From Candidatus Magasanikiibacteriota bacterium (GTDB lineage: Bacteria > Patescibacteriota > Patescibacteriia > Magasanikbacterales > 2-02-FULL-50-9b), in contig CAITMK010000008.1 of the NCBI GenBank assembly GCA_903893485.1, positions 10,612 to 74,611 of the forward strand: a DNA stretch of 64,000 nucleotides. Direction: 5' to 3'. The notes beneath the pieces were generated by a model, which saw only the letters and a list, made by a program, of their open reading frames with translations, had not been told where the DNA came from and did not search any database. Each line of letters opens with the position of its first letter. Within the stretch, counting starts at the first letter, position 1. Positions 1 to 50,797 of the stretch are shown piece after piece. A program made the translations under genes and the position numbers.

Positions 1-243
1 AAGATCTGCGCCGGAGTCATGGTGTTCACGTTGGCCGAAAGGTCCGTGGCAATCGCGGCAATCCGCTGCACCACATAACCATCTTCGGCACGATGATCAA
101 ACACCACGTGGTGAGGACTTCCCACCACGTATTGAGGTGCAGCCCACACCGCCACAAATGTAGCGGCAAAAGCGCACAGTACCATTTTGATCCAGAGCGG
201 CACACGCTGCTTTGGCTCCCTTCTGTCTTCAAACCGGTGCATG
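1..243 (-). CDS. partial CDS (N-terminal part only, runs off the window start); signal-peptide/TM-bearing hypothetical protein; GC-rich cassette-type gene
   Basis: minus-strand ATG at 243..241 preceded by AGGAGG about 6 nt upstream; reads MHRFEDRREPKQRVPLWIKMVLCAFAATFVAVWAAPQYVV... and is open to position 1; GC-rich unlike neighbouring PP2C gene. Confidence 0.4.
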
Positions 244-279
244 ACGCACCTCCTTCACCCCGATATTGCGGCTTGGCCG

Positions 280-308
280 ATGGTAGCACAAAAAACTCAC
301 TTAGTCAA
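280..308 (-). promoter_or_regulatory. sigma70-like promoter TTGACT-N17-TACCAT driving the partial GC-rich gene
   Basis: revcomp AGTCAA at 303..308, ATGGTA at 280..285, exact 17-nt spacer. Confidence 0.4.
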
Positions 309-357
309 CCATTCGAGCCAAAAATAAAATACCAACTAACGTTGAGACCTGATTCAA

Positions 358-1740
358 TTACAACCCTAATACTCGCATAAAAGCGGCATGTAGCTTTTGA
401 TTTTCTTCGCCTTCTGTAATCGTATTTACAAATTGTCGAGCACCCAAAACGTCGGCATGGATCATATCCTCAATATCCTGAAAACGTTTTTTTAAAAATT
501 CTGCTGAATAAGATCGCTGGGAGCCGTGAATCGTTTGGGCTGCATCCAGCGCATCAAATAATTCTTGTTTCGTTTGTACTTCACCAAATACCACAAGACG
601 CGAGGCACCTTTTACATTTAATTCAGTAAGTTGCTCAATTGGTACCCGAGCTTTTTTTAATTCCCCATGCACAATCTTTTGTACCAAAACTCTTTCATCT
701 GCATCCACAGCTTCCATAATGCGCCAATTTATATTCGTACCGTGATGACCCGGCAACTGAATAGTTACAAAATCCCCTATTGCATATACTGGTTCACGCT
801 TTTTCTTTTCAACAACCACTACTGAAATATTATCACCGCCATTCAGTGGTTCCATCATCACAAATCTCTGTTCATCAAAGAGAATTCTAAATTGCGTAGA
901 TGCATTATTACGTGCGTATGCTAATTTAAAAATTTTTTCTTGTAATTCATTTCCATGAAATCTCGCTGCAAGCATTTCAATTTCATATTCAGATACAACA
1001 TCCCATACCCCATCAGATGCTAACACAATTTGATCACCAGGCTGAGAGACAAAAGATTTTTTTTCGGGTGCACTATCCTTAGCACCAAATGCTCCCGTAA
1101 CTACATTATTAAATGGATGACTATAATATTCCCACGGCTTCACCAAGCCAAGTTCAATAAGCTGTTGCACTTTATTTTGCATGCGGGTCGTTCCATCTGG
1201 AAATTTTTTACCACCTCGAACAGTCATCGCCTTACTATCACCCGCAGAAAGAAGTGTTGCAGAATCACTATTCATTTCGAGCATAACACCCGTTGCATAC
1301 GATCCGGGTGCGTGCGACTGAATTGACTGAGTTACATTATCTGCATCAGCATCCAAATTAGGTGTAACCTGACGACCACCTTCCATAAATAATGCGTTTG
1401 CAATCACACTAGCTGTTCGCCCATCCTCGCTACCACCGGCACCATCAATCACGCCAACACGTAACCGATTACCGTTTGTTTGAAGTAGGATTGTATCCTC
1501 ATTTACATCCTTGTACTTCGACCCAGGGCCACCAGCGCTGGTATATGCACTAACTACCGCCCCCGGCACTTCAACAGATTTCCATTCCATTTCTGTGTGT
1601 GAACCGGACATCGTTGCTGAAGTGTATTCACCATACACCAACATATCTTCCTTGCGTGCATCGCGACGATGTGGTCGAGATTTTGAAAAAAAGTGCTCCA
1701 CGTAGCTATTTAAAACTTCGAAATATTGTCGCTCGCTCAT
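358..1740 (-). CDS. PP2C-family Ser/Thr protein phosphatase with about 150-aa C-terminal extension
   Basis: motifs VGVIDGAGG...DGRTAS and LASDGVWDVVS typical of PP2C metal-binding aspartates; start ATG overlaps stop of upstream kinase-like gene (ATGA). Confidence 0.8.
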   Translation of the reverse strand: MSERQYFEVLNSYVEHFFSKSRPHRRDARKEDMLVYGEYTSATMSGSHTEMEWKSVEVPGAVVSAYTSAGGPGSKYKDVNEDTILLQTNGNRLRVGVIDGAGGSEDGRTASVIANALFMEGGRQVTPNLDADADNVTQSIQSHAPGSYATGVMLEMNSDSATLLSAGDSKAMTVRGGKKFPDGTTRMQNKVQQLIELGLVKPWEYYSHPFNNVVTGAFGAKDSAPEKKSFVSQPGDQIVLASDGVWDVVSEYEIEMLAARFHGNELQEKIFKLAYARNNASTQFRILFDEQRFVMMEPLNGGDNISVVVVEKKKREPVYAIGDFVTIQLPGHHGTNINWRIMEAVDADERVLVQKIVHGELKKARVPIEQLTELNVKGASRLVVFGEVQTKQELFDALDAAQTIHGSQRSYSAEFLKKRFQDIEDMIHADVLGARQFVNTITEGEENQKLHAAFMRVLGL

Positions 1741-2711
1741 AGATTATTATTATACCATTGAATCCACATCGCGCGCGCCAAATCATCCCACTCCAAGAAA
1801 CGATCTACGCGTGTACTGCCTTTTAAATAATGTTCTTCCTCAACCCAAAAAGATTTGGTGCGATAAATTACAAATTCCAAAACCCCGGCACGAAATTCTT
1901 CGTCGCTCATGGGCCGCACGGCGCGATATGCTGCCAAAAAATCCCACGCGCGCGCCCATTTTTCTGGCGCGGTACCATAATCAAAACAGGTAATCGTCAT
2001 GGTGCGCACCACATCAAAAGCGGCGGGTTCAAATTGCGTTAGCTCAAAATCAAAGACTGCTTTTACCGCGCCCGCGTCATCAAAAAAAACATTGCCTGCG
2101 TGCAAATCATAGTGCACTAAAATGTTTTGCAATAGTGGCGACGATGCAAATGGCCAATGCGCTAATAAGTCACGTTTGCTTTTTGCAATGCGCAATGCCG
2201 CGCGATTAAATTCCGTTGGATTCGCTGCGCAATCTGCCTCAATAATTACAATCATTTTATCTGCATACGAAATTGCATCTGCAAAATTTACACGCGCAAA
2301 TTTTTTTTCAATGTGGCCCGGCACCGCAACCTCGCCCGCCAAATGTACGCGTGCTAACATTTGCGCAAGCGCGCGCAATTCCGCTGCGCTACAATGTTGA
2401 TCTGGAAATGTGCGGCCCGTAATAAACGGAAACAACGCGTAAAATTTTCCGTCAAATTCCGTAAATGTTTCACCACGTGAATTAACGATTGGCAACACCG
2501 CGGGAATCCCCGCGGCCGCAAAAAAGTTTTTACTTTTATGAATGTCGCTGACCCGTGCCGCATCAAGCGCGGAACGATATTGTTTCAAAAAAAATGTACC
2601 CTGCGCCGCAACAACTCTATAATTTTCACTCAAAAATCCGTGAGTAATTAACTCCACACTCGCCACTTCAATATTATACAGTGCAACAATTGCCTGAATT
2701 CGATCTTTCAT
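1737..2711 (-). CDS. phosphotransferase-family kinase (APH/choline kinase/homoserine kinase II fold)
   Basis: HYDLHAGNVFFDD catalytic-loop motif plus DFE motif of aminoglycoside-phosphotransferase-like kinases; translationally coupled to PP2C gene. Confidence 0.7.
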   Translation of the reverse strand: MKDRIQAIVALYNIEVASVELITHGFLSENYRVVAAQGTFFLKQYRSALDAARVSDIHKSKNFFAAAGIPAVLPIVNSRGETFTEFDGKFYALFPFITGRTFPDQHCSAAELRALAQMLARVHLAGEVAVPGHIEKKFARVNFADAISYADKMIVIIEADCAANPTEFNRAALRIAKSKRDLLAHWPFASSPLLQNILVHYDLHAGNVFFDDAGAVKAVFDFELTQFEPAAFDVVRTMTITCFDYGTAPEKWARAWDFLAAYRAVRPMSDEEFRAGVLEFVIYRTKSFWVEEEHYLKGSTRVDRFLEWDDLARAMWIQWYNNNL

Positions 2712-2879
2712 TCCTTAATTTAGCCACAAAAAATGATATACTGCAAGCCTATGGCCGCAATCTCACATGGGCTTGGGGCGATTCGCGCATATTTTTTCCA
2801 AATTGGATCACACTTGTTTTACTTTATATTACTTGGTTTTTTTGGCGCCGTACTTCCAAACTTCACACAACAAAAAATC

Positions 2880-2908
2880 TTGACAAATAATGCACGCTGT
2901 GATATCTT
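2880..2908 (+). promoter_or_regulatory. sigma70-like promoter TTGACA-N17-TATCTT for the GC-rich coiled-coil gene
   Basis: TTGACA 2880..2885, 17-nt spacer, TATCTT 2903..2908; followed by GGAGG at 2963..2967 and ATG 2973. Confidence 0.5.
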
Positions 2909-2972
2909 TTCAAGTCCATCATGCCAGCGCACATAGGGTGCAAAGGCAGTCCCGATGGACCGGAGGAACCCA

Positions 2973-4429
2973 TGAATGTCACTATTCAGTATTCAGGCGA
3001 TCGCGCCAAAACACGGGGAGTCCATGCGCTCTTTGTGGAACTTTTGAAAAAAGCGGGGCTGCAATCGGCCGACGCAAAATTGACGGTCACCGCAGGTGCC
3101 AAAGGTAGCTCTGAAAAACACGGTATCGCAGGCATCAGCATCGTTTCGCACGAAATCAAGACAACGCTCAAGCTCTGCTTCCAGCCGGAAGGACCCAGTA
3201 GCGCCCGCTACGGCTTTCTGAGCGTGAAAGGCGTCACGAAAAACGACCTGCAAGCGAAGCTTGAAGCGGCCATTGCGTTGGCCGGCGAAGGCACGCCACA
3301 CAAAGCGCGCAAGCGGAAAACACCGGAAGCGGTGGTTGCCATCTTGATCGCTGAGTTCAACAAATCCGGTCGTGAGCATTGGGAAGCGGCGTTCGATCTG
3401 ATCGAAGCGGCTGCCCAAGTCATGACGATCGTTGTCGGGCTGGGGCAATACCGCCACGAAGTTCGGCACGGCGATTTTCACGACTTGCTGGATGACGCGA
3501 CGGAAGTGTGTAGCTTCTTTCAAGTGCTGCACAGCGTCGGGCTCGCCGACAACGTGGATTGCGGCGAGGGCGTGAACGGCGAAAAGCCCATGCGCATCGA
3601 TCTCGACTTCTACCATGAGGTGGCGGCCGAGTTTGCAAAGCGCAAGGCCGCCGATCAGCCGAAGCCCGATGACAATCCGGCACCGACTAACACTGCACCG
3701 CCCGAGGAACCTACGCCTACGATCAGCTACGTTGCGTTCTTGTACAGGCTTTTCCAGGTTGAGCGGTTCCAGGACATGACCACTGCAGAAGTTTGGCGCG
3801 ATCACGGCACGCAACTCGGCGCCGTAAACGGCACAAACGTCCGCAATCACTTCAAAAGTGGCGTCCAAAACGGCTTGTTGATACCGACCGGCGAAGAAAG
3901 GCAGATTCCTCCACAAAACAAGAACTGCACGGTTCGCAAGTTCAATCCGGCATCCGAAATGGTGCAAGGCTGGGCGCGCGAACTGGGCGTGGAGATTCCG
4001 AAGGTGGCTGTGTTGCCGCCCAAGGAAGAACTGCCGGCGCAGGACAAGCCCATCCGCGAGCGAATTGTTGTGCTGGAACTGAGAAAGGAACGGCACTTGG
4101 CCGATGTCCATAACCTCGATGCCGAAGTGCAGAGCCTGACTCAGGCAATCCAGAACATCGAAGCCGCCAAGCAGGAGGCGCTGGCGGAATTCGCACGGCA
4201 AACGACAGAGCGCGAAGAGATGATCCGCCTTCGCATGAGTTTGCGCGCGCCGCTGCTGGAAGAGATTCCGAAGCTGCAAACGCAGATCAGTGCGTTGCAA
4301 GCGCAGGACGAGTCGGCTATCTTCGCCGCCTTGGAGGAAACCGCTCGCCGCCTCGGCATCCCGGTTGACCAGCTTCTCGCCGCCGGCATGAAACGCGTCG
4401 CCCCCGCCGCCCAAGTCCCCGCTGGCTAG
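2973..4429 (+). CDS. hypothetical protein, 485 aa, C-terminal coiled coil; GC-rich foreign-type cassette gene
   Basis: long ORF (track 2921..4429); GGAGG 5 nt before ATG 2973 supports internal start MNVTIQYSGD; C-terminal heptad-like Q/E/L/A-rich segment; no recognisable catalytic motif; both strands open (GC-rich). Confidence 0.6.
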
Positions 4430-4446
4430 CAACCGCCACCAGCAAA

Positions 4447-4506
4447 CGCACCGGAATTCAGAGACCGTACTTCATCTCTGGGTTCCGCGTGCGGTTTTTA
4501 TTTTTG
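4447..4506 (+). terminator. intrinsic terminator (GC hairpin + TTTTTATTTTT)
   Basis: GCACCGGAAT...CCGCGTGCGGTTTTTATTTTT; paralogous to the terminator after purA. Confidence 0.6.
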
Positions 4507-4529: not shown

Positions 4530-4558
4530 TTGACATGAATGCTTGTCAGGCTTAAGCT
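4530..4558 (+). promoter_or_regulatory. sigma70-like promoter TTGACA-N17-TAAGCT for purA
   Basis: TTGACA 4530..4535, 17-nt spacer, TAAGCT 4553..4558; GGAGGT 6 nt before ATG 4603. Confidence 0.5.
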
Positions 4559-4602
4559 TATACGCGGCAACACGACTTATTTTGAGTCACGGAGGTGAAG
4601 CC

Positions 4603-5928
4603 ATGCAACTTTCAAAACCAACAACATCTTTGCTCCCCCGCATCGAAAAAATGCTTACAGGCGACCGCACCATTGCAGTCGTTGGCGCGCAGTTTGGCGA
4701 TGAGGGCAAGGGCAAAATCGTCGAATTGCTTGCGCTCTGGGCAGACATCATCGTTCGTTTCAACGGCGGCAACAACGCGGGCCACACCATTTACGTGGAC
4801 AACAAGCCCGAAGTTTTGCACCTACTGCCATGCGCCATCTTCCAACGTGGCAAAATCTGCGTCGTTGGACAAGGCGTGGTCGTTGATCTGGAAGTCCTGA
4901 AAAAGGAACTCGGCCTAGCAAAAGGCCGTGGATCGATCATCCGCATTGATCGGCGAGCACCGGTGATTCTCCCCATCTACAAGCAAATTGATGGTTTGCG
5001 TGAAGCGGCCAATTCGAAAAAGCTGGGAACAACCGGGCGCGGCATCGGGCCGGCCTATGAAGCGCACGCCAGTCGGTATGCGCTGCGCATGGGTGATCTC
5101 ACGAGCGCCTCCCGCATTCGCGAGGCGCTAAATCGTGGCGGCAACTATTATGCGCAATTGTGCGCGGCTGCCAAAAGTCTCGGTGGCACGCCGCAAACAG
5201 AAGATGACCTGGTCAAAGAGCTTCTCGGTTATTCGCGTATGGTCAAAAATCTACTGTACGACACCGTGGAAATCGTGCGCAAAGCATTGGGTACCAAAAA
5301 AATCATGTTTGAGGGCGCGCAAGCCGCACTCCTAGACGTGAATCAAGGTACCACGCCGTTTGTGACATCCAGCTCATGCACCATCGCCGGTATTTACAGC
5401 ACCTTTGGGCAGCTGCCCATTGATCGGGTGTTCGGCGTGGCCAAGGCTTATGTCACTCGCGTTGGCGAGGGCCCATTCCCCTCAAAAATCGTGGGTGAAA
5501 TGGCCCATGCCCTGCGCGAAGCTGGCAACGAGTACGGCTCCACCACCAAACGTCCGCGCGACGTCGGTTGGATGGACCTGTTTGCACTGCGCTATGCGGT
5601 ACAGATGGGCGGCATCACGGACATCTGCCTCACCAAGGCGGACGTGTTGAATCTGTGGTCTCAGCTGCAAGTGTGCACCAAATACATGCACGGCAAGAAT
5701 GTGGCGAAAGAACATCGCCTCATGACCGCCGAGTATGTGAAAGAATGCACGCCAGTGTTCGAAGAAGTTGAAGGTTGGCACGGTGCAAACCTCACCGGCA
5801 TCAAACTCTTCGGGGATCTGCCGCCCGCGCTGCAACAGTACATCCGCGACATCGCTGCGTTCCTGGGTGTGCCAGTCAGTATGATCGGTATTGGCCCGTG
5901 TCACGACGACATCATCTTCCACGGCTAG
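4603..5928 (+). CDS. purA: adenylosuccinate synthetase, GC-rich
   Basis: QFGDEGKGK P-loop, GGNNAGHT, TTGRGIGP, VTSSS, LTKADVL motifs colinear with E. coli PurA; start chosen at ATG 4603 by GGAGGT RBS (track ORF starts earlier at 4543). Confidence 0.85.
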   Translation: MQLSKPTTSLLPRIEKMLTGDRTIAVVGAQFGDEGKGKIVELLALWADIIVRFNGGNNAGHTIYVDNKPEVLHLLPCAIFQRGKICVVGQGVVVDLEVLKKELGLAKGRGSIIRIDRRAPVILPIYKQIDGLREAANSKKLGTTGRGIGPAYEAHASRYALRMGDLTSASRIREALNRGGNYYAQLCAAAKSLGGTPQTEDDLVKELLGYSRMVKNLLYDTVEIVRKALGTKKIMFEGAQAALLDVNQGTTPFVTSSSCTIAGIYSTFGQLPIDRVFGVAKAYVTRVGEGPFPSKIVGEMAHALREAGNEYGSTTKRPRDVGWMDLFALRYAVQMGGITDICLTKADVLNLWSQLQVCTKYMHGKNVAKEHRLMTAEYVKECTPVFEEVEGWHGANLTGIKLFGDLPPALQQYIRDIAAFLGVPVSMIGIGPCHDDIIFHG

Positions 5929-5949
5929 GCCAACTGCCGCGTCCCAGCA

Positions 5950-6016
5950 ATCGCACCGGAATCCTCCAGACCGAACTCTCGTCTGTTGCAGGAATCCGCG
6001 TGCGATTTTTTATTTA
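5950..6016 (+). terminator. intrinsic terminator, same family as 4447..4506
   Basis: GCACCGGAATCC...GGAATCCGCGTGCGATTTTTTATTT. Confidence 0.6.
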
Positions 6017-16160: not shown

Positions 16161-16166
16161 TGCACG

Positions 16167-16895: not shown

Positions 16896-16934
16896 GCTAA
16901 CCTCCGAAAAGTTGAGAAACAAAAAACGCCCCGC

Positions 16935-18433: not shown

Positions 18434-18434
18434 T

Positions 18435-38505: not shown

Positions 38506-38853
38506 ATGGTTTCACGTGAAACATCCCATAACCTATCTGACGATTTTATAGCTGGAATAATTTCGGTTTCAGGTAGTTTTCTTCATACAAAAACTGCACG
38601 CGTAGAACAATTTGGTTTTCAAATAAAAACACCAAAAGAAAACTTTGCGCTTCTTGAAATGATACGACTCAGACTTGGCTTAAAAGGATCCGTAAAAATC
38701 TATTCGGCAGATGGATCAGAATATGCATTACTTATTACAAGATCAAAAAAAGAGCTTTTGAACAAAATAATTCCATTTGTTGAACATAAACTACTTGGAA
38801 TTAAGCTAAATCAATATTTAAATTGGAAAGATAAACTCCAATCTATTTTATAG
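38506..38853 (+). CDS. LAGLIDADG-family homing-endonuclease-like protein, motif acidic residues replaced by Ser (likely degenerate)
   Basis: DDFIAGIISVSGSF aligns to LAGLIDGDGSF motif; downstream FQIKTPKEN...LLITRSKKELLNKIIPF typical of LAGLIDADG fold; sits between two tRNAs. Confidence 0.5.
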   Translation: MVSRETSHNLSDDFIAGIISVSGSFLHTKTARVEQFGFQIKTPKENFALLEMIRLRLGLKGSVKIYSADGSEYALLITRSKKELLNKIIPFVEHKLLGIKLNQYLNWKDKLQSIL

Positions 38854-38962: not shown

Positions 38963-39038
38963 TGGTGCCCCCGAGAGGATTTGAACCTCTATTAACCCCT
39001 TAGGACGGGGCAGTTCTATCCAGTTGAACTACAGGGAC
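38963..39038 (-). tRNA. tRNA-Arg (anticodon CCT), CCA encoded
   Basis: GTCCCTGTAGTTCAACTGGATAGAACTGCCCCGTCCTAAGGGGTTAATAGAGGTTCAAATCCTCTCGGGGGCACCA. Confidence 0.8.
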
Positions 39039-41735: not shown

Positions 41736-41764
41736 TTGACAAAAAGCCGAATTTCTAATAGTCT
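41736..41764 (+). promoter_or_regulatory. promoter TTGACA-N17-TAGTCT
   Basis: TTGACA 41736..41741, TAGTCT 41759..41764; AAGGAG 8 nt before ATG 41797. Confidence 0.5.
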
Positions 41765-41796
41765 TGCCTCCAGGCATCACACAAGGAGATATTGCC

Positions 41797-42378
41797 ATGA
41801 CAGCAGAACACAATTTCGCAGGCGCATCGAGCGCATACTCACTTGTGGGACGTATCGTCGATATGCTTCACACATGCGCGCAAGGTAGAAAGGCTGCCAC
41901 GCTCATCGAGAGAAACCTCGATCTAATCCACCGTCTACTGCGGACAATCCGCGCGGTTGCCGAACTCGAAGCCGTCGGACCGAACTACGGTAACGATCCG
42001 ATGGAGGTATCGTACACGAGCGCCACCGGCGAGTCTGTGAAAGAACGTGTTTGGCTCGGCGCCATCCGGCTCAGTGACGTTTACAGCGATGCTGGGCGTG
42101 GCCGTTCACTCGACGAATTTAATCCAGAACAAACGCGCACGATGCTGCAATTGCTCGATGTCCGATTCGCAAACGAGCACCACTGGAAAGCGCTCGCGAA
42201 CGAAACGAGCGAGCCGTGGCGTTGGCAACAATACCTGATCTTCGACGACGCACGCATCCTCGTGCCGATGAAGCAGGAAGTCCCCGCGCTGCAAGCACAC
42301 CCATGTACCAACAACACCGTGCCGAACATCGACTTTTACCCCTGCATCATCATCGTGCTGAAGTTGGAGCCGATGTAG
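41797..42378 (+). CDS. hypothetical protein (193 aa), GC-rich cassette gene E1
   Basis: ORF with SD-supported start MTAEHNFAG; no recognised domain. Confidence 0.55.
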   Translation: MTAEHNFAGASSAYSLVGRIVDMLHTCAQGRKAATLIERNLDLIHRLLRTIRAVAELEAVGPNYGNDPMEVSYTSATGESVKERVWLGAIRLSDVYSDAGRGRSLDEFNPEQTRTMLQLLDVRFANEHHWKALANETSEPWRWQQYLIFDDARILVPMKQEVPALQAHPCTNNTVPNIDFYPCIIIVLKLEPM

Positions 42379-42395
42379 CTAGCAGCGAAACATGC

Positions 42396-42452
42396 GGTCC
42401 GTCCGGATCTGAGTCCATCACTTGGGGCTCTCCGGACGGCGTTTTTATTTTG
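42396..42452 (+). terminator. intrinsic terminator, family shared with 43202..43256
   Basis: GGTCCGTCCGGATCTGAGTCCATCACTTGGGGCTCTCCGGACGGCGTTTTTATTTTG. Confidence 0.65.
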
Positions 42453-42466: not shown

Positions 42467-42495
42467 TTGACAGAAACTGTATTTTGCAGTAGTCT
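42467..42495 (+). promoter_or_regulatory. promoter TTGACA-N17-TAGTCT (paralog of 41736..41764)
   Basis: TTGACA 42467..42472, TAGTCT 42490..42495, both preceded by GATTGACA. Confidence 0.5.
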
Positions 42496-42551
42496 TTTCC
42501 CATGCCTGTAGCAAATTGCTGCACACATCCCAACATCGCGTGAGGCTATCA

Positions 42552-43193
42552 ATGAGCAATCCTGTTTGGCTTTTTCTTCACCACATTCGCCCTTATCTGT
42601 TCGAGGTCGAGACGCTTGATCCGAAAAACCTGAAATCAGTCGCGGCGGCGCTGAACCTTGTCGATCGGTTCAATCAGATCAGTGAGCACGCGCTGCACGA
42701 GCATTTCAGCACCGTCGATCCGAGCGCCAACGATTCGCAGGAATTGCGGATGTTCCACAACTTGTTGAAGTCGCTGCTCGAAGTGATGCCGCGGCACCCT
42801 GAACTGACCGCGACCTACAACAAAGTGTTTGGCGTTTACGTGATGCTGTTCGAACACCAGCACGACGAATACGGCAAGCGCGGCGCTGAGCGGATCGTCG
42901 AGATGCTGAAACCTGAGAACTTTCAACACAACATCGAGGCTTGGCCGATTTACCACAAAGCGATCATCCTCGCCGTGTGGGCATTCGTGAGGCGTGCAAA
43001 GACAACCCTGAGTCCGCACAACGATGATACCATTCCGCTGAAAATCACGGCGGTGGAACTTGTGCTGAGAACGATCGATCCCGACATGTCAGCTGCCGCA
43101 AAGATGAGGCGTATGAGCGAATATGGCCTGGATCATACGTACCGGCTCTACCAGTTTCACCACCATGAATCGGCGAGCACGACGCCGCAGTAG
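42552..43193 (+). CDS. hypothetical protein (213 aa), GC-rich cassette gene E2
   Basis: SD-like GAGG 6 nt before ATG (MSNPVWLF); His-rich C-terminus YQFHHHES; no recognised domain. Confidence 0.55.
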   Translation: MSNPVWLFLHHIRPYLFEVETLDPKNLKSVAAALNLVDRFNQISEHALHEHFSTVDPSANDSQELRMFHNLLKSLLEVMPRHPELTATYNKVFGVYVMLFEHQHDEYGKRGAERIVEMLKPENFQHNIEAWPIYHKAIILAVWAFVRRAKTTLSPHNDDTIPLKITAVELVLRTIDPDMSAAAKMRRMSEYGLDHTYRLYQFHHHESASTTPQ

Positions 43194-43201
43194 TCGAACT
43201 A

Positions 43202-43256
43202 GTCCGTCCGGATTTGAGCCCAGCATTTGGGGCTCTCCGGACGGCGTTTTATTTTA
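43202..43256 (+). terminator. intrinsic terminator; U-tract contains polA stop codon on opposite strand
   Basis: GTCCGTCCGGATTTGAGCCCAGCATTTGGGGCTCTCCGGACGGCGTTTTATTTTAATCC. Confidence 0.65.
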
Positions 43257-45965
43257 ATCCAAATCTGCCCAACTGTTTCCAATCGCACTATCAACTTTCA
43301 GTGGCACGCTCAATTTCGCAACGCCATTCATAATTTCAACAATCTTTGGCGCCAAATCTTTAACCAACTTTTCTTCAATCTCAAAAATCAATTCATCATG
43401 TACCTGCAAAATCATGCGAGCAGGGCAGGCGCGTTCCGCAGCGGTTAGGCTAAACCCAAATCCATATTCGCGCACCAAAAATTCATCAACCGCAATCATC
43501 GCTTTTTTCACAATGTCAGCTTGCGTTCCTTGAATTGGCATGTTCACTGCCATGCGATCTGCGGCGGCGCGCACACCAGCCACGCCGGAATGCATTTCTG
43601 GCATATAGCGACGGCGACCAAACATGGTTTCAACGTATCCATTCTCACGCGCAAATTTTTTAATGCCTTCGACGTACGCTGCAACACCAGTAAACGTTGC
43701 AAAATATTTTTCAATAAACGCGCGTGCCTCACTTTGTGAAATACCCGTGCGCTCTGCCAAACCCCACGCACCCATTCCATACAAAACACCAAAGTTAACT
43801 TCCTTTGCGGAAAAACGCATTTCTTTAGTCACCTGATCGAGCGGCACACCATGAATTTCTGCGGCCGTTGCTTTATGAACGTCTTCGCCTTTTTCAAAAA
43901 TTTCAATTAATTTTTTATCCTGTGCTAAGTGTGCAACAATGCGCAATTCAATTTGCGAATAATCGCACGACAACAATTTGTATCCATCGGCTGCAATAAA
44001 CGCACGACGAATATCGCGGCCCAATTCACTACGCACCGGAATGTTTTGCAAATTTGGATTCGATGATGACAAGCGACCAGTTGCAACAACAACTTGATTG
44101 TAACTGGTATGCACACGACCGTCTTGCGCAATTAATTTTGGCAACGCGTCGACATAGGTCGATAATAATTTTGCAACTTCACGATGTTCCAAAATCGCAT
44201 CAATAATTTCGTGCGTGCCTTTTAATTTTTCAAGTTCGCCGGCGGCGGTTGAAATTCCAGTTTTTCCGCGCTTAATTCCAAATGTTGATAATTTTAATTC
44301 TTCAAATAAAACTTCGGAAACTTGTTGTGGCGATGCAATGTTAAATTCATGGCCTGCGAATCCATACACGCGCGCGGTAATTTTTTCTTGGCGCGCGGTT
44401 AAGTCAACATGTAATTTTTCCAAATATTTTGGATCAACTAAAACGCCATAACGTTCCATGCGCGTGAGTGGTGCAACGAGTGGCATTTCAATATCCGTAA
44501 ATAATGCCATCTGATTTTTTTCTTCCATGTCCGCACCTAATTTTTCTGCGATACGTGCAACACGTGCTGCAGCACGCGCAACAGTTGCACCATCCGCAGT
44601 TGTCCATTCAGCCACCGGCACGTCTTCGCCTAAAATTGTAATCACCAAATTTGGTAAATCATGTGCGCGTGTTCCGGCTTGCAATAAATATGCCGCAACC
44701 ATAATGTCAAAAAACTTTCCCGCAACGGTGATGCCATGCATCGCAAGTTCGTGCATTAATTGTTTAACATCGTGGGCCACAACACCAACGCGCTTATCCA
44801 TAAACAATGGACCGAGCGCATCCCACTGCGATTCCTCGCGCACTTCAACTGCAGCCTGATTGTCGCCATACGAAAATCCAAAGAACGCAACTGATCCTGC
44901 AAACAAATCTTGTTGCGCAACGCGCATAAAATGCACTGCAATTTTTGGTTGGTCTTGAAGTTTTGCAACCAACGCATGTGTGCTTGCTGCATCGCGTGCA
45001 ACAACTATTTTTTTTGCGGGTGTAGATTTTTTTGGTGCTTCTGCAGCTGGCGCATCTTTGCTTCCTGGTAATCGATTTAACAAAGATAAAAATTCAAACT
45101 TTTGCAAAACAGGAAAAATTTCATCGCGTGTAATTCCATCGAATGCGCATTCATCAAAATTAAAATCAATTGGCACATTGCGTACAATCGTAACCAACTC
45201 CTTACTAAGGAGTGCATCTGATTTGTGCTCGAGTAAAACTTTTTGCACACGCGCACTCAATCCTTCTGCAACTTTTTCATGTGCAGCAGCCAACTCCAAT
45301 TTCTCGTATAAATTTTCAATGGTCCCAAAATATTTAATAAGTTCCATGCCTGTTTTTTCGCCAATACCTTTTACGCCTTTAATATTATCAGACGTATCAC
45401 CACGAAGTGCTTTGTAATCGATCATCTGAGGTGGTTCAAAACCAAAACGTTCGTGCACCGCTGCCGCGTCGTAAGTTACGGTGTCATTAATACCTTTGCG
45501 CATGGTGTACACCACGGTATTTTTGTCTACCAACTGAAGTGTATCCATATCACCAGTCACAATAACTTTTTTTGCGTGAGGCGCTTCGGTTACAATCGTA
45601 CCGATCACATCATCAGCCTCAAAACCTTTTTTTTCGTACACCGGAATTTTTGCAGCTGCTAAAAATTCTTTGATAAAAGGAATTTGCGCATACAATTCAT
45701 CCGGTGCTTTTGTACGCGTTGCTTTATATTCTGCATACGCTTCATTGCGAAATGTCCCACCAGCCACATCAAAGGTAACTACCACGTGCGTTGGTTTAAC
45801 ATCTTTTATCGCTTTAAAAAGTGTGGTGATAAAGCCGTACACTGCATTTACCAAAACCCCGTCTTTCGTTGCCAAAGGAGGAATTGCATGAAAACATCGA
45901 TGTACCATTGCGTTCCCATCGATAATCATGAGCTTATTTTCTGAGGTTTTTGGAGTTTGAGCCAT
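43254..45965 (-). CDS. polA: DNA polymerase I (5'-3' exonuclease + 3'-5' exo-like + polymerase domains)
   Basis: N-terminal FEN motifs, Klenow motifs DYSQIELR, RRxAKxxNFGxxYG, QVHDELIFE. Confidence 0.95.
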   Translation of the reverse strand: MAQTPKTSENKLMIIDGNAMVHRCFHAIPPLATKDGVLVNAVYGFITTLFKAIKDVKPTHVVVTFDVAGGTFRNEAYAEYKATRTKAPDELYAQIPFIKEFLAAAKIPVYEKKGFEADDVIGTIVTEAPHAKKVIVTGDMDTLQLVDKNTVVYTMRKGINDTVTYDAAAVHERFGFEPPQMIDYKALRGDTSDNIKGVKGIGEKTGMELIKYFGTIENLYEKLELAAAHEKVAEGLSARVQKVLLEHKSDALLSKELVTIVRNVPIDFNFDECAFDGITRDEIFPVLQKFEFLSLLNRLPGSKDAPAAEAPKKSTPAKKIVVARDAASTHALVAKLQDQPKIAVHFMRVAQQDLFAGSVAFFGFSYGDNQAAVEVREESQWDALGPLFMDKRVGVVAHDVKQLMHELAMHGITVAGKFFDIMVAAYLLQAGTRAHDLPNLVITILGEDVPVAEWTTADGATVARAAARVARIAEKLGADMEEKNQMALFTDIEMPLVAPLTRMERYGVLVDPKYLEKLHVDLTARQEKITARVYGFAGHEFNIASPQQVSEVLFEELKLSTFGIKRGKTGISTAAGELEKLKGTHEIIDAILEHREVAKLLSTYVDALPKLIAQDGRVHTSYNQVVVATGRLSSSNPNLQNIPVRSELGRDIRRAFIAADGYKLLSCDYSQIELRIVAHLAQDKKLIEIFEKGEDVHKATAAEIHGVPLDQVTKEMRFSAKEVNFGVLYGMGAWGLAERTGISQSEARAFIEKYFATFTGVAAYVEGIKKFARENGYVETMFGRRRYMPEMHSGVAGVRAAADRMAVNMPIQGTQADIVKKAMIAVDEFLVREYGFGFSLTAAERACPARMILQVHDELIFEIEEKLVKDLAPKIVEIMNGVAKLSVPLKVDSAIGNSWADLD

Positions 45966-46064
45966 AGTAATGGGTAGTGTAGCAGCTCTTCAGGTATAAA
46001 AAAAGCCCTCAGACCGCCACGGTATTATGGCAGTCCAAGGGGAAGAAAACGTCTGCTGATTGGT

Positions 46065-46859
46065 TCACGAAGCTTCGGGATTCGGCAATTCTTTGTAAAT
46101 CACCCGGACATCATCACGGTCTGCGCCGACAACGTGATATATGGCTTTCAATTGGCCGTCTTTAGCCGAGCAGTACCCACGCAAAATGCCGGTGAGCGTC
46201 TTTGCAGAATCTTCGACTGGCTCAAAAGCAAACTCGGTACCGTATATATTAGACTGCGTAACACGGCCAAAAATGGTTTCACCCTCCGCATTTGAACAAG
46301 CCAAGATTTCGGATCCGTCTTTGCAGGGAACCGTGGCCAAAAATCCGCGCTTAGCGAGCCGCTTGCCCGTTTCTGCCGAATATTTGAGCGCCATCCATGC
46401 GCCTTCAAAACGCCAGAACAGCCGGGTACTCGTTGAACGGATCACCATGCCGTTCACCAGCGTGTAGTCGATCGCCGGCTCATCCCACTTGAGCGGATGA
46501 TGTACGCCCGGTTCGTAACACCGCCTCGCCGACGTATAAGTTCCCAGTCCGGCATACACACGCGGCAAGGCCTGATTACTCAAATCACCAAGAGCGCCAA
46601 CAAGATCGCGCCACACAAGAATGGCTGGCAAGTGATTAGCCTGCACCTTTCCTGAGAGTGTCACGAAAATTTCTGGCGAAAACTCTCCCTTTTGCGGTGA
46701 AATTACAAGCCGAGAAAGTGTCGTACCGGCAAATCCGCGGGGAAGTGCGGTCTCGATAAGCGGCAACAATTGCAACGTCTCCAAACCATCTCCAGGCACA
46801 TTCAAATACAGGCCATGAGCACTCCGCAATAGAGTACCGCCAAATTTTTCCGCTGTCAT
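46065..46859 (-). CDS. hypothetical protein (265 aa), GC-rich cassette gene
   Basis: GGAGG 5 nt before ATG (MTAEKFGG); promoter TTGACG-N17-TATACT at 46901..46929 and 5'-UTR hairpin CCCTACgtgatGTAGGG. Confidence 0.55.
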   Translation of the reverse strand: MTAEKFGGTLLRSAHGLYLNVPGDGLETLQLLPLIETALPRGFAGTTLSRLVISPQKGEFSPEIFVTLSGKVQANHLPAILVWRDLVGALGDLSNQALPRVYAGLGTYTSARRCYEPGVHHPLKWDEPAIDYTLVNGMVIRSTSTRLFWRFEGAWMALKYSAETGKRLAKRGFLATVPCKDGSEILACSNAEGETIFGRVTQSNIYGTEFAFEPVEDSAKTLTGILRGYCSAKDGQLKAIYHVVGADRDDVRVIYKELPNPEAS

Positions 46860-46900
46860 GAATCCTCCAAAAGTGAGCCCTACATCACGTAGGGTCAAAA

Positions 46901-46929
46901 AGTATATCGTTAATTTGCAAATTCGTCAA
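46901..46929 (-). promoter_or_regulatory. promoter TTGACG-N17-TATACT
   Basis: revcomp CGTCAA 46924..46929, AGTATA 46901..46906. Confidence 0.5.
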
Positions 46930-46932: not shown

Positions 46933-47715
46933 TCACAAACCAATTTGCTTTGAAACAGCCCACAAAGAATTAAACATTGCCTGCATTAATTCAAAATGCT
47001 CACGCGACTTAACCACCAAAACAAAACCCGTGTCGCGACTAGAAATATACATAACTTCTTGGTCATATAAAAATACTGTGGTGCGAAAATGTCCAATCAT
47101 TTCTTTTGGAAGTAAACGCACTTCTGCCAAACCCTTGTACGAATTTGCTAAAATTTTTGGTTCCAATTCTTTTTCCCACAAATGGCGCGTGGTAATTCGA
47201 CGCCCCACACGCTCTGCAACATAGCTCGCAGAAAAAGCCTGTCCAACTTGCCAAAAAAAATTATCGTGTGGCGCAATGGAATCAATGTGCCCACTTTTGC
47301 AATAGAGCGTATCCATGATCGCGCGCTTCATTGCATCTTCACCTTGATAATACAAAACGCCCGGCGCACCTTCATGCGCAATATTATTTTTTTTCAGCGC
47401 CGGAATAAGTGCGGTAACTTCATCTGCAAGCGCTGCTAATTCTTGCTGGCGAATTTTCACCATCGCGGACAACGCCTCTGGCGCTTCTGCTTGAAAACGT
47501 TCTGTGCCCTGTGCCATTTGTTTTGTTATAAGTCCACGATCCAATAATTGGCGGAGTGCATAATACACAGTCGGACGTTTTGCTTTCGTGAGCGTAGTTA
47601 ATTCGCGCGGCGTGAGTGCGCCACGTTCCACCAACATTAAATAAAGCTGAACTTCAGAATCTGAAAGACCGAGGTGTAATAAAACTTCGCGATTATTTTT
47701 ATCTAAATTTTGCAT
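46933..47715 (-). CDS. TrmB-family transcriptional regulator
   Basis: N-terminal wHTH LGLSDSEVQLYLMLVERGALTPRELTTLTKAKRPTVYYALRQLLDRGLI; low-GC native. Confidence 0.65.
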   Translation of the reverse strand: MQNLDKNNREVLLHLGLSDSEVQLYLMLVERGALTPRELTTLTKAKRPTVYYALRQLLDRGLITKQMAQGTERFQAEAPEALSAMVKIRQQELAALADEVTALIPALKKNNIAHEGAPGVLYYQGEDAMKRAIMDTLYCKSGHIDSIAPHDNFFWQVGQAFSASYVAERVGRRITTRHLWEKELEPKILANSYKGLAEVRLLPKEMIGHFRTTVFLYDQEVMYISSRDTGFVLVVKSREHFELMQAMFNSLWAVSKQIGL

Positions 47716-47758: not shown

Positions 47759-47787
47759 TTGTACGGCTTAGGACAACCCGGTATGCT
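47759..47787 (+). promoter_or_regulatory. candidate promoter TTGTAC-N17-TATGCT
   Basis: 17-nt spacer; weaker -35 than other cassettes. Confidence 0.3.
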
Positions 47788-47847
47788 GTGGATATGTGAT
47801 GAGAAAGGCTCATCGCACGAAGAGGAGACAAGCGGTAAAGAGGAACC

Positions 47848-48729
47848 ATGTTCTGTACAAATCAAAAAATCTGGATGAAGCTGTGGGGCGTGCGGGGGTC
47901 GCGCGCGACGGATGACCAAGAAGTCGGTGGCGCTACCACGTGCATCGAAATGCGGGCTGGCAGCAGCACGCGGCTGGTGTTCGACGGCGGTACGGGTATC
48001 ATCGCCTTCGGCAATACGCTGTTTGCAGAGCTTGCCAAGGGTCCGGTGACGGTTCACCTGTTCCTGACCCATCTGCACACGGATCACTGGGAAGGCCTGC
48101 GGTTCTTTGATCCGCTGCATCACCCAAACCTGAAGCTGGTCATTTGGGGCCGAAAAGGGTTGGTGCGGATGCTGCGCAAGCAGATGTTCGACGGCAACTC
48201 CTTTCCGGTCACACCGGATATGCTGAAGGCGGACATCACGTGCATGCTTGTGGAAGATGATGGCGTGTATGTGATTCCGACACCTGAAGGCAAAAACGTC
48301 GTGGTTCACGCGCGTAGCCTGAATCATCCGGGTGGATGCTTCGGCTACCGCGTTGAATACGACGGCGCGAGCGCAGCGATCATCCAAGACCACGAGGAGC
48401 AAATCGAGGATACGCCCGAAGCGGCGCAGCTCGAACGCAACCTGGTGGAATTGGTGAGCGGTGTTGATCTGGTGGCCTTCGAGGTTCAGTACTCCGACGA
48501 CATGTACTTTGGTCGTGATGGTCCGAGCCGCAAGGGTTGGGGTCACGATCGCGTGGGACATGCGGCAAAGGTGCTGGAACTCGCAGCGCCCAAAGCGGTG
48601 AAGATCGTCCACGCCGACCCGGACCGCGGCAACCTGGCGTTCGTTACCACGATCGCCAGCGCGGTGCAAAAAGCCACAGGCATTCCAACCACTCCTGGTA
48701 TCCAGGGTGAAGAGGTGACCTGTGGCTAG
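47848..48729 (+). CDS. metallo-beta-lactamase-fold hydrolase, GC-rich cassette gene
   Basis: LTHLHTDHWEGL (HxHxDH) plus downstream His/Asp ligands; antisense ORF 47749..48669 is GC-driven. Confidence 0.75.
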   Translation: MFCTNQKIWMKLWGVRGSRATDDQEVGGATTCIEMRAGSSTRLVFDGGTGIIAFGNTLFAELAKGPVTVHLFLTHLHTDHWEGLRFFDPLHHPNLKLVIWGRKGLVRMLRKQMFDGNSFPVTPDMLKADITCMLVEDDGVYVIPTPEGKNVVVHARSLNHPGGCFGYRVEYDGASAAIIQDHEEQIEDTPEAAQLERNLVELVSGVDLVAFEVQYSDDMYFGRDGPSRKGWGHDRVGHAAKVLELAAPKAVKIVHADPDRGNLAFVTTIASAVQKATGIPTTPGIQGEEVTCG

Positions 48730-48740
48730 ATGCTCCAGCT

Positions 48741-48798
48741 AAAACCCACGATTAACTACGCATGAAGAATGTAAGTTAATCGTGGGTGTTTTTTATTT
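48741..48798 (+). terminator. intrinsic terminator; T-tract abuts stop codon of SPFH gene
   Basis: AAAACCCACGATTAAC...GTTAATCGTGGGTGTTTTTTATTTAC. Confidence 0.65.
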
Positions 48799-49552
48799 AC
48801 GCGTTATGCTCCTGCTGCATGAAAGTTTTAATATCCTGAATTGTTCCCATGAACTGAGATGGGAAAATAATCGTTGAATTTTTTTCAACGGAAATTTCGG
48901 CAAGTGTTTGCAAGTTGCGAAGCTGCAATGCAATTGGATGCGCCATCATGATGTCCGCAGTTTCAGCAAGTTTTTGTGCAGCAAGCGCTTCACCTTCAGC
49001 GGCAATAATTTTTGCACGCTTTTCACGTTCTGCTTCTGCTTGTTTCGCCATGGCGCGCTGCATTGAATCGGGCAACTGAATATCTTTAATTTCAACGGTA
49101 ATAACTTTTACACCCCAAGGAGTTGTGTGGGTATCAATAAGTGTGCGAATTTCTTCGTTGATTTGTTGCATTTCGGAAAGCACTTCGTCGAGTGCAAATT
49201 TACCAACAATGTTACGCACAGTTGTTTGTGCAATTTGATTAATTGCAGAAGAAACATTTTCGATCACGATAATGCTACGTGGTGCATCAACAATTTGATA
49301 ATACGCAACAGCCGAAACATCGATTGAAACATTGTCGCGAGAAATAATTTTTTGTGGCTGGACCGGCATGGTCATGACACGCATATCAACGCGGCGCATT
49401 TGATCGATGAAAGGCCAAACCATGCGAAGACCCGGCTGTTTTTCGTGGCTAAAACGGCCAAGACGAAAAATAACGCCCCGCTCGTACTGCCGAATAACCG
49501 AAAAGGTGCTGACGATGAGTAAAAAAATGATGATGCCAAAAATATAAAACAT
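48797..49552 (-). CDS. SPFH/band-7 (stomatin/prohibitin-like) membrane protein
   Basis: N-terminal TM, YERGVIFRLGRF, coiled-coil AEAEREKRAKIIAAEGE. Confidence 0.9.
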   Translation of the reverse strand: MFYIFGIIIFLLIVSTFSVIRQYERGVIFRLGRFSHEKQPGLRMVWPFIDQMRRVDMRVMTMPVQPQKIISRDNVSIDVSAVAYYQIVDAPRSIIVIENVSSAINQIAQTTVRNIVGKFALDEVLSEMQQINEEIRTLIDTHTTPWGVKVITVEIKDIQLPDSMQRAMAKQAEAEREKRAKIIAAEGEALAAQKLAETADIMMAHPIALQLRNLQTLAEISVEKNSTIIFPSQFMGTIQDIKTFMQQEHNA

Positions 49553-49604
49553 AGTGCGCCGATTATGGCGCAGCTTTAATAAGCTGTCAAACGCTAAAAT
49601 AAAA

Positions 49605-49680
49605 AAGCGGCCGAAGCGACTCGTTGAAGGTGGGCGTGTTTTGCCTCTTCAGTGAATCGCTTCGGCCTTGGCCAGCTTGG
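49605..49680 (-). terminator. intrinsic terminator of GC-rich gene 49683..50600
   Basis: minus: GGCCGAAGCGATTCACTGAAGAGGCAAAACACGCCCACCTTCAACGAGTCGCTTCGGCCGCTTTTTTATTTTAG. Confidence 0.6.
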
Positions 49681-49682
49681 GG

Positions 49683-50600
49683 CTAGGCCGCGGTCGCGTA
49701 CAGCTGGAGCTCGTCGCGCAGCTTGCCCGACTGCTCCACGCTCAGCACTTCAGCCACGTTGTTGCCGTCGCCGTCGTCCAGGAAGCACGCGATGTTGCCT
49801 TCCGGGCCCGTGGCGCCGATGACCGCGCGAACCGTGCGCTGCTTCTGCTGGTTGTCCAGGATCTTCAGCTCGCCGGCGAGGATGGCCTGCGGCATGACGG
49901 AGAACTCGCCGGCGTCGTTGTACTTGACGAGGACAAAATCACCGGTGTCCGAGTTCAAGCACAGCAGCTTGTCGCCGGTATCGCGCGAGATGCTGGAAAG
50001 CTTGAACTGGCTCGCGGGCGACGGGATCGCGCTGCCGACCAGGTCGATCGACATGAGGATGCTCTCGGCGTCCAGCAGGCTGAGCAGCGGCTCGCCCTCT
50101 TTCGGGCTCTTGTGCAGCAGGACCAGGACGTTGGCGTTGCCGATCTTGAAGACGGCCGCGTCGACGAACTTGTTGTTGACCTCGGGCAAGCCCGGGATCC
50201 AGGACACTTCCTGCACGTTGGCGCCGACGAGGTGCTTGCCGGTGAAGCGGTCGCCGTCGACATTCTTCATGATCTGCTCGACCGCCGCCTTGTCGCCTTC
50301 GACGAAGTGGAAGTTCTTGCCCGCCGTCACGACGTACGAGGACTTGGCCTCTTCGCCGTCGGCGCTCGCGATGAACTGCGAGGACATGACGCACGCCTCG
50401 TCGTCGGCCAGCTTGTATTTCTTGGCTTCCGCGGCGTCGATCAGCTTGACTTCAAACTTGCCGATTTCGTCGCCGACCGCGCGCTTCAGCACGACGGCGC
50501 CGGTGTTCTCGGACTTGGCTTTGACGATGCCGTCGCTGCCGATGTAGGCAAGGCCCATCGTGGTGATGAGCTGGATCATAATCGTACGATTGCTGTTCAT
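49683..50600 (-). CDS. hypothetical protein (305 aa), very GC-rich cassette gene
   Basis: protein-like composition on minus strand whereas the 3-4 overlapping ORFs on other frames are Arg/Ala/Gly-rich GC artefacts; GAGG 4 nt before ATG. Confidence 0.55.
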   Translation of the reverse strand: MNSNRTIMIQLITTMGLAYIGSDGIVKAKSENTGAVVLKRAVGDEIGKFEVKLIDAAEAKKYKLADDEACVMSSQFIASADGEEAKSSYVVTAGKNFHFVEGDKAAVEQIMKNVDGDRFTGKHLVGANVQEVSWIPGLPEVNNKFVDAAVFKIGNANVLVLLHKSPKEGEPLLSLLDAESILMSIDLVGSAIPSPASQFKLSSISRDTGDKLLCLNSDTGDFVLVKYNDAGEFSVMPQAILAGELKILDNQQKQRTVRAVIGATGPEGNIACFLDDGDGNNVAEVLSVEQSGKLRDELQLYATAA

Positions 50601-50700
50601 GATGCCTCGTAACCAGTGGATGCGGCCCTTTCTGAGCCAACATCGGTTTCCCTTATTAGCAATGACGGCCTATCCGCCATCGCCAATCTGAGTGAAAGTG

Positions 50701-50729
50701 ATATTAACGGATTTTCAAAAAAATGTCAA
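50701..50729 (-). promoter_or_regulatory. consensus promoter TTGACA-N17-TAATAT
   Basis: revcomp TGTCAA 50724..50729, ATATTA 50701..50706. Confidence 0.55.
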
Positions 50730-50797
50730 GAGGTGACCGACCCCAGACAAAGCAAACAAAAAACCCACCTTTCGGCGGGCTACATTTATTGGCTATA

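Follow-up and report, generated by a model that had tools for sequence, protein, structure and literature searches.

Replacement, or flexible, genomic islands are multi-gene units inserted between core genes; horizontally acquired atypical genes, of the type described by Lawrence and Ochman or called by GeneMarkS-2, are told apart by composition and are more often GC-poorer than their genome (PMC6028130); integrons and clusters of attC sites lacking integron-integrases (CALINs) collect short cassettes; and in GeneMarkS-2 group C genomes leaderless genes coexist with genes that use a Shine-Dalgarno (SD) sequence (PMC6028130). Here, a stretch of 64,000 nucleotides from a Candidatus Magasanikiibacteriota bacterium (assembly GCA_903893485.1, contig CAITMK010000008.1, positions 10,612 to 74,611, forward strand; hereafter the window) was analysed for a set of GC-rich, SD-led single-gene cassettes, named c0, cA, purA, cC, cD, E1, E2, cF, cG and cH, that lie among AT-rich native genes starting without an SD. 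The cassettes were read, with a probability of about 0.5, as real, chromosomally fixed single-gene accessory transcription units in which open reading frames (ORFs) turn over inside conserved expression sites. The window was placed by PolA in Candidatus Magasanikbacteria, within the Candidate Phyla Radiation (CPR)/Patescibacteria, the closest metagenome-assembled genomes (MAGs) being L007, L008, L009 and L013 at 66–69% PolA identity; no relative above 66% PolA identity to the window was found in Joint Genome Institute metagenomes.

The closest described concept is a replacement flexible genomic island or a horizontally acquired atypical gene. Like flexible islands, the cassettes occupy fixed sites between syntenic core genes (tRNA-Cys to polA and polA to holA), vary in content or are missing among relatives, are atypical in composition and mostly carry genes without known function; unlike islands, the units are single genes of 0.6–1.6 kb, each with its own promoter, SD and terminator, and the control elements of one slot are conserved between genera. 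Distinct codon usage, GC content at third codon positions (GC3) and dinucleotides, together with absence from relatives, are shared with atypical genes, but the cassettes are GC-richer than their genome, their tie to SD initiation is all-or-none, no homologue of cH or cF turned up, purA remains GC-rich despite its deep divergence, and the searches point to neither an identifiable donor nor phylogenetic incongruence. Integrons and CALINs are resembled in the short cassettes of mostly unfamiliar ORFs and in the terminal hairpins, which have a conserved outer stem and a variable centre and are alike between neighbours. The cassettes are nevertheless not integron cassettes or a CALIN: there is no GTTRRRY core site, the hairpins end in GTTTTTA T-runs and are ordinary intrinsic terminators, no integron integrase lies nearby, and no cassette lacks a promoter. 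They also form arrays of no more than two and are spread over at least five loci on both strands. About 40% of native genes have a −10 box at a distance of a few nucleotides from the ATG, which recalls group C. In that group the other genes, leadered or operon-internal, rely on an SD, but here none of the 48 native genes has one and SDs occur only in the GC-rich class. Among the papers that could be searched, none was found to connect SD use with leaderless and GC-rich genes in CPR.

The cassettes and the core features that border them were delimited as listed below, and two starts that the first-pass annotation of this DNA had given as 2973 and 243 were corrected to 2972 and 242.

1–308, − strand: c0, cut by the window start; promoter 280–308, SD GGAGG 249–253, ATG at 242, first 80 codons 3–242.
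2880–4505, + strand: cA; promoter 2880–2908, SD 2962–2966, ORF 2972–4429, hairpin and T-run ending at 4505.
4530–6015, + strand: purA cassette; promoter 4530–4558, SD 4591–4595, ORF 4603–5928, terminator end 6015.
16116–17062, − strand: cC; promoter 17034–17062, SD 16901–16905, ORF 16167–16895, terminator end 16116.
17115–17756, − strand: cD; near-consensus promoter 17728–17756, SD 17692–17696, ORF 17156–17686, terminator end 17115.
40745–41707, − strand: holA, native leaderless core gene, one border of the E slot.
41736–42451, + strand: E1; promoter 41736–41764, SD AAGGAGA 41783–41789, ORF 41797–42378, E-type terminator 42397–42451.
42467–43255, + strand: E2; promoter 42467–42495, SD GTGAGGC 42540–42546, ORF 42552–43193, E-type terminator 43202–43255.
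43254–45965, − strand: polA, native leaderless core gene between the E slot and the tRNA-Cys slot.
45996–46929, − strand: cF; promoter 46901–46929, SD 46864–46868, ORF 46065–46859, terminator end 45996.
47759–48798, + strand: cG; near-consensus promoter 47759–47787, SD AAGAGGAA 47838–47845, ORF 47848–48729, terminator end 48798.
49596–50729, − strand: cH; promoter 50701–50729, SD CGAGGC 50604–50609, ORF 49683–50600, hairpin 49609–49667, T-run end 49596.
50798–50868, − strand: tRNA-Cys(GCA), conserved border, on the left, of the variable slot from tRNA-Cys to polA.

Gene starts were set by inspection and each gene was then scored, with nine complete and one partial GC-rich genes compared to 48 native ones. 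The window has a GC content of 44.7% overall, with sharp islands of 52–63%. GC was 0.52–0.63 and GC3 0.53–0.92 (mean 0.67) in the nine complete GC-rich genes against 0.31–0.49 and 0.18–0.51 (mean 0.37, s.d. 0.06) in the native genes, so that the two discrete classes anticipated from GC3 and codon usage were indeed separated (Mann–Whitney p = 2e-6 for GC3). Among leucine codons, TTA was absent from the cassettes (0 of 250) and made up 412 of 1463 in the native genes, the ATC fraction was 0.70 versus 0.20 and the CCG fraction 0.57 versus 0.17; the amino-acid composition of the two classes was about the same. The GC-normalised dinucleotide difference (delta*) was 0.123 for the cassettes and 0.034 ± 0.012 for native subsets of equal size. 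Codon preference varied between cassettes, those of the window favouring CTG and those of L008 CTC, and an ORF scan confirmed that the antisense strand stays open across the cassettes, as had been reported. Base composition and codon usage of the cassettes are distinct from those of the host genome.

Pairing with the anti-SD at a free energy (dG) of −5.7 kcal/mol or below was found for all nine complete cassettes and the partial one, and an SD motif preceded 9/9 complete cassettes versus 0/48 native genes (Fisher p = 1e-10), operon-internal native genes being likewise without one. SD-like matches occurred at 14% of internal ATGs of the same cassettes, used as control, and 9/9 by chance had p = 2e-8; the SDs are therefore not a by-product of GC content. 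An SD thus stands before each of the ten GC-rich genes, although the exact GGAGG first claimed for all of them is present in only six (c0, cA, purA, cC, cD and cF), the others having AAGGAGA (E1), GTGAGGC (E2), AAGAGGAA (cG) and CGAGGC (cH). Across the whole window GGAGG gave 43 matches against 41 expected, which is no overall enrichment, and no rRNA gene was detected in the window, so the 16S anti-SD (CCUCC) end of the host was not seen there. The position of many native ATGs just after a −10 box, part of the original description, was borne out: TANNNT ended 4–12 nt 5′ of the ATG in 19 of 48 native genes (about 40%) against 11.6% at internal ATGs (p = 7e-7), and in 0/9 cassettes, the leaders of which measured 32–138 nt.

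A promoter of the form TTGACD-N17-TANNNT (D being A, T or G) had been assigned to each cassette. Fifteen matches were found in the window against 1.5 expected (tenfold), eight at cassettes, with near-matches for cD and cG, and seven before native genes, which makes the motif the host promoter consensus. Cassette leaders often had a 5′ hairpin, those of cC, cF, cG and cH being structured, and no Rfam match to a riboswitch or leader RNA family was obtained. At the 3′ end, a GC-rich hairpin followed by a T-run, the mark of an intrinsic terminator, was predicted for 9/9 cassettes at −13 to −38 kcal/mol, the exact T4-7ATTT tail described earlier being present in seven; a hairpin at −15 kcal/mol or below followed 14/48 native genes, because most of these are in operons. 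The motif SSSTTTTNATTT was tried as a cassette-specific terminator tail and rejected as not specific. The stop codons of polA and of an SPFH gene lie inside the T-tracts of neighbouring cassette terminators, in agreement with the first report.

In the slot between polA and holA the non-coding ends could be followed between genera. The cassette promoter of this slot, GGATTGACAAAA, is divergent from holA, with the holA −10 on the opposite strand, and is kept in the window (E1), L013 and L007; a second copy stands 5′ of E2, the spacer of which, AAACTGTATTTT, is common to L013, and the 33-nt promoter block of the slot is 91% identical between the window and L013. The E-type terminator, CCGTCCGGAT...TCTCCGGACGGCGTTTTTATTT, follows E1, E2 and the L013 gene with a conserved outer stem and a variable centre. 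Its 3′ arm and T-run match at 22/22 nt between genera; within the window, the copies after E1 and E2 show 89% identity over 54 nt. In protein comparisons, E1, E2 and L013_12881 did not resemble each other. The non-coding ends thus persist longer than the coding sequence, a pattern that speaks for ORFs being replaced, or added, between control elements that stay conserved; the E-slot promoter and terminator are, judging from these alignments, older than the ORFs they flank, and the E1–E2 tandem looks like the product of a single or unequal crossover. Elsewhere, cA and purA encode unrelated proteins and have a common terminator outer stem with different centres; the idea that their promoters are mutual copies was dropped, as the common part is only ATCTTGACA, which is the −35 consensus. 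After tRNA-Cys, a terminator followed by the C(T/C)TTGACA promoter of the first slot gene is kept in the window, L009 and L007.

The comparison with relatives covered the 38–56 kb region, for which E1, E2, cF, cG and cH are the informative cassettes. The core order dnaN, small ORF, penicillin-binding protein (PBP) gene, tRNA-Cys, gap, polA, gap, holA, rmuC is kept, with tRNA-Cys after the PBP gene in L007, L008, L009 and L013. The two gaps differed in gene count as follows.

tRNA-Cys to polA gap: five genes in the window, two in L007, two in L008, two in L009, none in L013.
polA to holA gap: two genes in the window, one small ORF in L007, three in L008, none in L009 (34 bp), one in L013.

Gaps empty in relatives, as envisaged at the outset, were thus seen between tRNA-Cys and polA in L013 and between polA and holA in L009, whereas the others hold different GC-rich, SD-preceded ORFs of similar size and orientation, with 0/10 Pfam matches. 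Searches (tblastn) with the cassette proteins against the loci of L007, L008, L009 and L013 gave no match at E<1e-3, and SPFH was likewise without a homologue. The cassettes therefore appear to be absent from the same position in close relatives, and the slots have the aspect of replacement islands, that is, fixed sites between conserved flanks with content that seems non-homologous.

Possible remote homology within slots was assessed for cH with L008_772 and L009_7882 and for cF with L007_8994 and L009_9022. These pairs gave hhalign E values of 0.06–0.2, Smith–Waterman z scores of 3–5, inside the spread of 120 control pairs, and only weak reciprocal matches with jackhmmer; a six-frame comparison of slot DNA returned compositional artefacts in wrong frames only. 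L007_8994 and L009_9022 are true orthologues at 27–30% identity, against 69–74% for core proteins of both genomes, so that slot genes can diverge extremely fast.

Two native genes, a trmB-like gene (46933–47715) and an SPFH/Band_7 gene (48797–49552), have native composition and no SD and are situated inside the tRNA-Cys to polA slot. None of the four relatives has either gene in that slot, which indicates that it also takes low-GC genes.

The link between SD and GC3 was then found to be a property of the clade. In 16 further Magasanikbacteria loci, ORFs with a strong SD (n = 23) had a median GC3 excess of +0.12 versus 0.00 for those without (n = 177; p = 3e-6), and all properly spaced canonical SDs in these loci were on GC3-enriched genes. 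Native and SD-led GC3 were 0.30 versus 0.46–0.53 in L014, 0.37 versus 0.53–0.92 in the window and 0.54 versus 0.66–0.93 in L008.

The same DNA, spanning all three cassette regions, was recovered at 99.8–100% identity from at least four independent environmental assemblies (ENA, Logan), and other assemblies of the species differed from the window by 8 single-nucleotide polymorphisms (SNPs) in 31.5 kb. An engineered or synthetic insertion series, raised by the first-pass annotation, or an assembly chimera of two organisms is practically out of the question on this evidence: the modular promoter–ribosome-binding site–gene–terminator layout and the GC3 of cH, which is close to saturation, give a superficial impression of design and codon optimisation, but the junctions are identical in the independent assemblies, so that a chimera is excluded and an engineered origin is untenable, MAGs of related genera from unrelated projects show the same phenomenon, and the terminators overlap native stop codons and promoters.

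One of the assembled loci, L056, extends the window 5.4 kb leftward and holds the full c0 and three more GC-rich SD-led genes. The complete c0 encodes 548 aa (L056:3994–5640; GC3 0.70, SD dG −13.4) and has no Pfam family. Also on L056, a DpnI-like gene (2888–3322, − strand) has a GC3 of 0.22, far under native genes, and the adjoining SdpI-family gene (2263–2877, − strand) has a GC3 of 0.61 and no SD; the latter breaks the SD/GC3 rule, unless its start is mis-set.

Profile searches with the cassette proteins recognised purA and otherwise returned, besides faint noise, only weak matches to FGase (cC) and MBL (cG). Pfam matches were obtained for 3/13 cassettes (window and L056) versus 18/20 of the native genes tested, and no family was found for c0, cA, cD, E1, E2, cF or cH in Pfam, NCBIfam, PHROGs, PADLOC or, where tested, PDB. 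PDB sequence searches with cG, cC and cD, viral-contig scans with cA, c0 and E2 and with the E-type hairpin, and plasmid tblastn with cC, cA, cD and c0 returned nothing. The homology searches intended to name a donor lineage produced none: purA (adenylosuccinate synthetase; Pfam PF00709, E = 7e-133) had best database matches at 45% identity, full-length cG homologues at 32–35% identity came from plasmids of Hyphomicrobiales (GC-rich Alphaproteobacteria), and cH and cF found only themselves among 5.8 billion proteins, as did cH when 1.84 billion representatives were searched exhaustively with phmmer. AlphaFold2 without alignment gave a predicted local distance difference test score (pLDDT) of about 35 for cH and cF.

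The individual units showed the following features. The cA protein (485 aa) has a coiled-coil C-terminus. The cC terminator extends into the −35 of a native ABC transporter gene, and its 138-nt leader (16906–17033, − strand) has a terminator-like hairpin (16925–16942) and a U-run just 5′ of the SD, which may be an attenuator. In a co-occurring variant strain the sole differences over 4.6 kb were T66A and R54G (window 16700 and 16736), both in cC (codons 66 and 54), and the SNPs are too few (8) for population inference. The cD gene is divergent from lexA and encodes 176 aa with faint GNAT-like hints only. Two GAAC-N4-GTTC palindromes resembling LexA boxes (window 17690–17850) lie between the lexA–dinB operon (17852–19757) and cD, so that cD may be under SOS control. 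The −35 of E1 overlaps that of holA on the opposite strand, the E2 terminator overlaps the polA stop codon, and the proteins have 193 and 213 aa. The cF unit encodes 264 aa, has a 5′ hairpin in its leader and a terminator that extends into the polA promoter.

The cG unit likewise has a 5′ hairpin in its leader, its terminator overlaps the SPFH stop codon, and the protein is an MBL-fold hydrolase by its weak family match. The closest annotated homologue is on a Phyllobacterium plasmid (L064, NZ_CP104972.1, 275236–276066), near a Crp/Fnr regulator, a metallophosphoesterase and an adenylate/guanylate cyclase; together with a weak NCBIfam match (E = 7e-4) this neighbourhood hints at a cyclic-nucleotide phosphodiesterase role. 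The cH promoter lies immediately 3′ of the tRNA-Cys terminator, the 100-nt leader is structured (fold z = −4.35), and the protein has 305 aa with a GC3 of 0.92. Public gene calls place cH on either strand, two assemblies having 314 aa on + (49668–50612) and two 305 aa on − (49683–50600), from which it follows that single-model gene finders mis-annotate cassette genes; the − strand is backed by GC3 periodicity, promoter, SD and terminator. The cassettes are interspersed with native genes between 41.7 and 50.8 kb, as first described, but in the order holA, E1, E2, polA, cF, trmB, cG, SPFH, cH, tRNA-Cys, which had been garbled.

The reading of the cassettes as sites of ORF turnover builds on observations that are directly in evidence: the split into two gene classes, the architecture common to the cassettes, the association of SD with GC3 across the clade, slots of variable content, and conserved ends around unrelated ORFs. 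The core genes of the clade have AT-rich synonymous sites and no SD, and many begin right after a −10 box. Each cassette comprises a host-consensus sigma-70 promoter, a leader of 32–138 nt, an exposed SD, a GC3-rich ORF and a strong intrinsic terminator, and its translation would, unlike that of core genes, initiate by SD pairing. The ORFs would be swapped in or added by recombination through the conserved regulatory ends, a single crossover with a copy, circular or sister, that bears the same ends would yield precisely the E1–E2 tandem, and the ORFs would be drawn from a GC-richer, SD-using gene pool. Their functions would probably be niche-, host- or phage-related accessory roles. Several points weigh against this proposal. 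No donor lineage was found for any cassette, and cH and cF lack any homologue. The nearest relatives of purA are 45% identical and have the same SD-led architecture, which suggests long residence over recent import. The lysine-rich make-up of cH and L008_772, which have the same slot and orientation, 305 and 296 aa, and GC1/2/3 of 0.60/0.36/0.92 and 0.64/0.37/0.93, fits in-situ maintenance better than import: the lysine share of lysine plus arginine, K/(K+R), was 0.77 and 0.72, against a maximum of 0.59 (and a minimum GC2 of 0.38) in 61 ORFs of real high-GC genomes. No integrase, transposase or flanking direct repeats adjoin the cassettes within the window. The sole tyrosine recombinase there is Xer-like (35729–36697) and more than 5 kb from any cassette, and no tRNA-fragment repeat surrounds the tRNA-Cys slot, in which cH adjoins tRNA-Cys. 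Clearly conserved ends come from a single slot, the promoters of cA and purA matching just in the −35 consensus, and swapping within the population was not observed in the one strain sampled.

The GC-richness itself has two live explanations, either a foreign gene pool or maintenance in situ. The latter would make the cassettes a resident second gene class of fast-evolving lineage genes, the GC3 and SD of which are kept by selection or local bias, for example by selection for stable leadered mRNAs or through a separate SD-dependent translation regime, and this is a tentative but serious alternative. It gains from purA, which groups with L055, L062 and L063 at 45–49% identity, all SD-led, with their own terminator and GC-richer than their neighbours in genomes of 45–68% GC; a gene so divergent and yet GC-rich points to in-situ maintenance, since synonymous sites should have drifted to host composition. 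The SD-led GC3 excess at every native GC3 level sampled (L014, the window and L008), the agreement of cH and L008_772 in slot, size and odd composition (GC2 0.36–0.37, GC3 0.92–0.93, K/(K+R) 0.72–0.77), the very fast divergence of slot genes seen with L007_8994/L009_9022, and the 5′ leader hairpins and strong terminators, as in stabilised mRNAs, point the same way. To our knowledge, however, a within-genome GC3 shift of +0.3 to +0.55 is far beyond known effects of selection or biased conversion. A resident class also accounts poorly for the differing dinucleotide signature, for codon preferences that differ among cassettes (CTG in the window, CTC in L008) and for same-slot ORF homology that stays within noise; cA and purA cannot descend from one ancestor, yet have a common terminator module, and E1/E2 terminators that are 89% identical around unrecognisable ORFs are not expected of uniform divergence after duplication.

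Of the horizontal acquisition first suggested for these genes, an accessory nature with a possible foreign origin is supported by their atypical composition and their absence from the loci of relatives. The specific form of that idea, in which a high-GC physical host recently donated the genes and these were then refitted with local promoters, is unlikely. By our estimate, most cassettes fit the published relations of GC1, GC2 and GC3 for a 52–59% GC genome, which would count for a foreign pool, cH is next to a tRNA gene and cG has its homologues in GC-rich Alphaproteobacteria, in addition to the composition and distribution already named. Recent transfer is difficult to reconcile with the lack of any homologue closer than 45% for the cassettes tested, two of them having none, with an E-slot promoter and terminator that predate the ORFs, with the amino-acid make-up of cH, unlike that of high-GC genomes, and with the absence of mobility genes or repeats adjoining the cassettes. 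A further reading, to which little credence was given, is that each cell runs two expression systems, an SD-less AT-rich core and an SD-only, TTA-free GC-rich set of rapid turnover on stabilised monocistronic mRNAs, in conserved promoter/terminator sites that accept unrelated ORFs.

Other features of the window were recorded. A free-standing LAGLIDADG homing-endonuclease ORF of 115 aa (38506–38853, + strand; GC 0.31, GC3 0.18) lies between tRNA-Ala(GGC) (37947–38021) and tRNA-Arg(CCT) (38963–39038), with no rRNA or intron host detected, and is atypical in the direction opposite to the cassettes, being GC-poor. Tandem paralogous ORFs with repeated flanks (28894–31300, − strand; repeats 30218–30323/30732–30837 and 30329–30361/30845–30877) had been labelled pilins in the first-pass annotation; a hairpin CCGGAAG...CTTCCGGATGATTTTTTTCT ends right at their ATG, as a terminator-like element abutting the start codon. 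The region 54038–58016 contains dnaN, dnaA and then 1.15 kb (56869–58016) with a single 114-aa ORF (list minimum 100 aa), and the cumulative GC skew has its minimum near 52–53 kb. The replication origin is probably close to dnaN–dnaA and the skew minimum.

The CPR accounts for a substantial part of bacterial diversity, and the majority of its accessory genes are without known function. In the clade studied here, a simple sequence rule, namely an SD, a leader and high GC3 versus none of these, splits the conserved core from a fast-turnover set, which is the natural first place to seek host- or phage-interaction genes. The all-or-none link between SD and composition and the conservation between genera of the ends of one slot around unrelated ORFs go beyond routine transfer. 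If the two-system reading were true, the accessory set could be switchable by ribosome state or tRNA supply, for example between free-living and host-attached phases, and, more speculatively, a GC-rich host that uses SDs could express the genes. Should the high GC be kept up in place, it would constitute an unusually strong gene-class-specific synonymous composition in a bacterium and would offer a handle on translation start in CPR.

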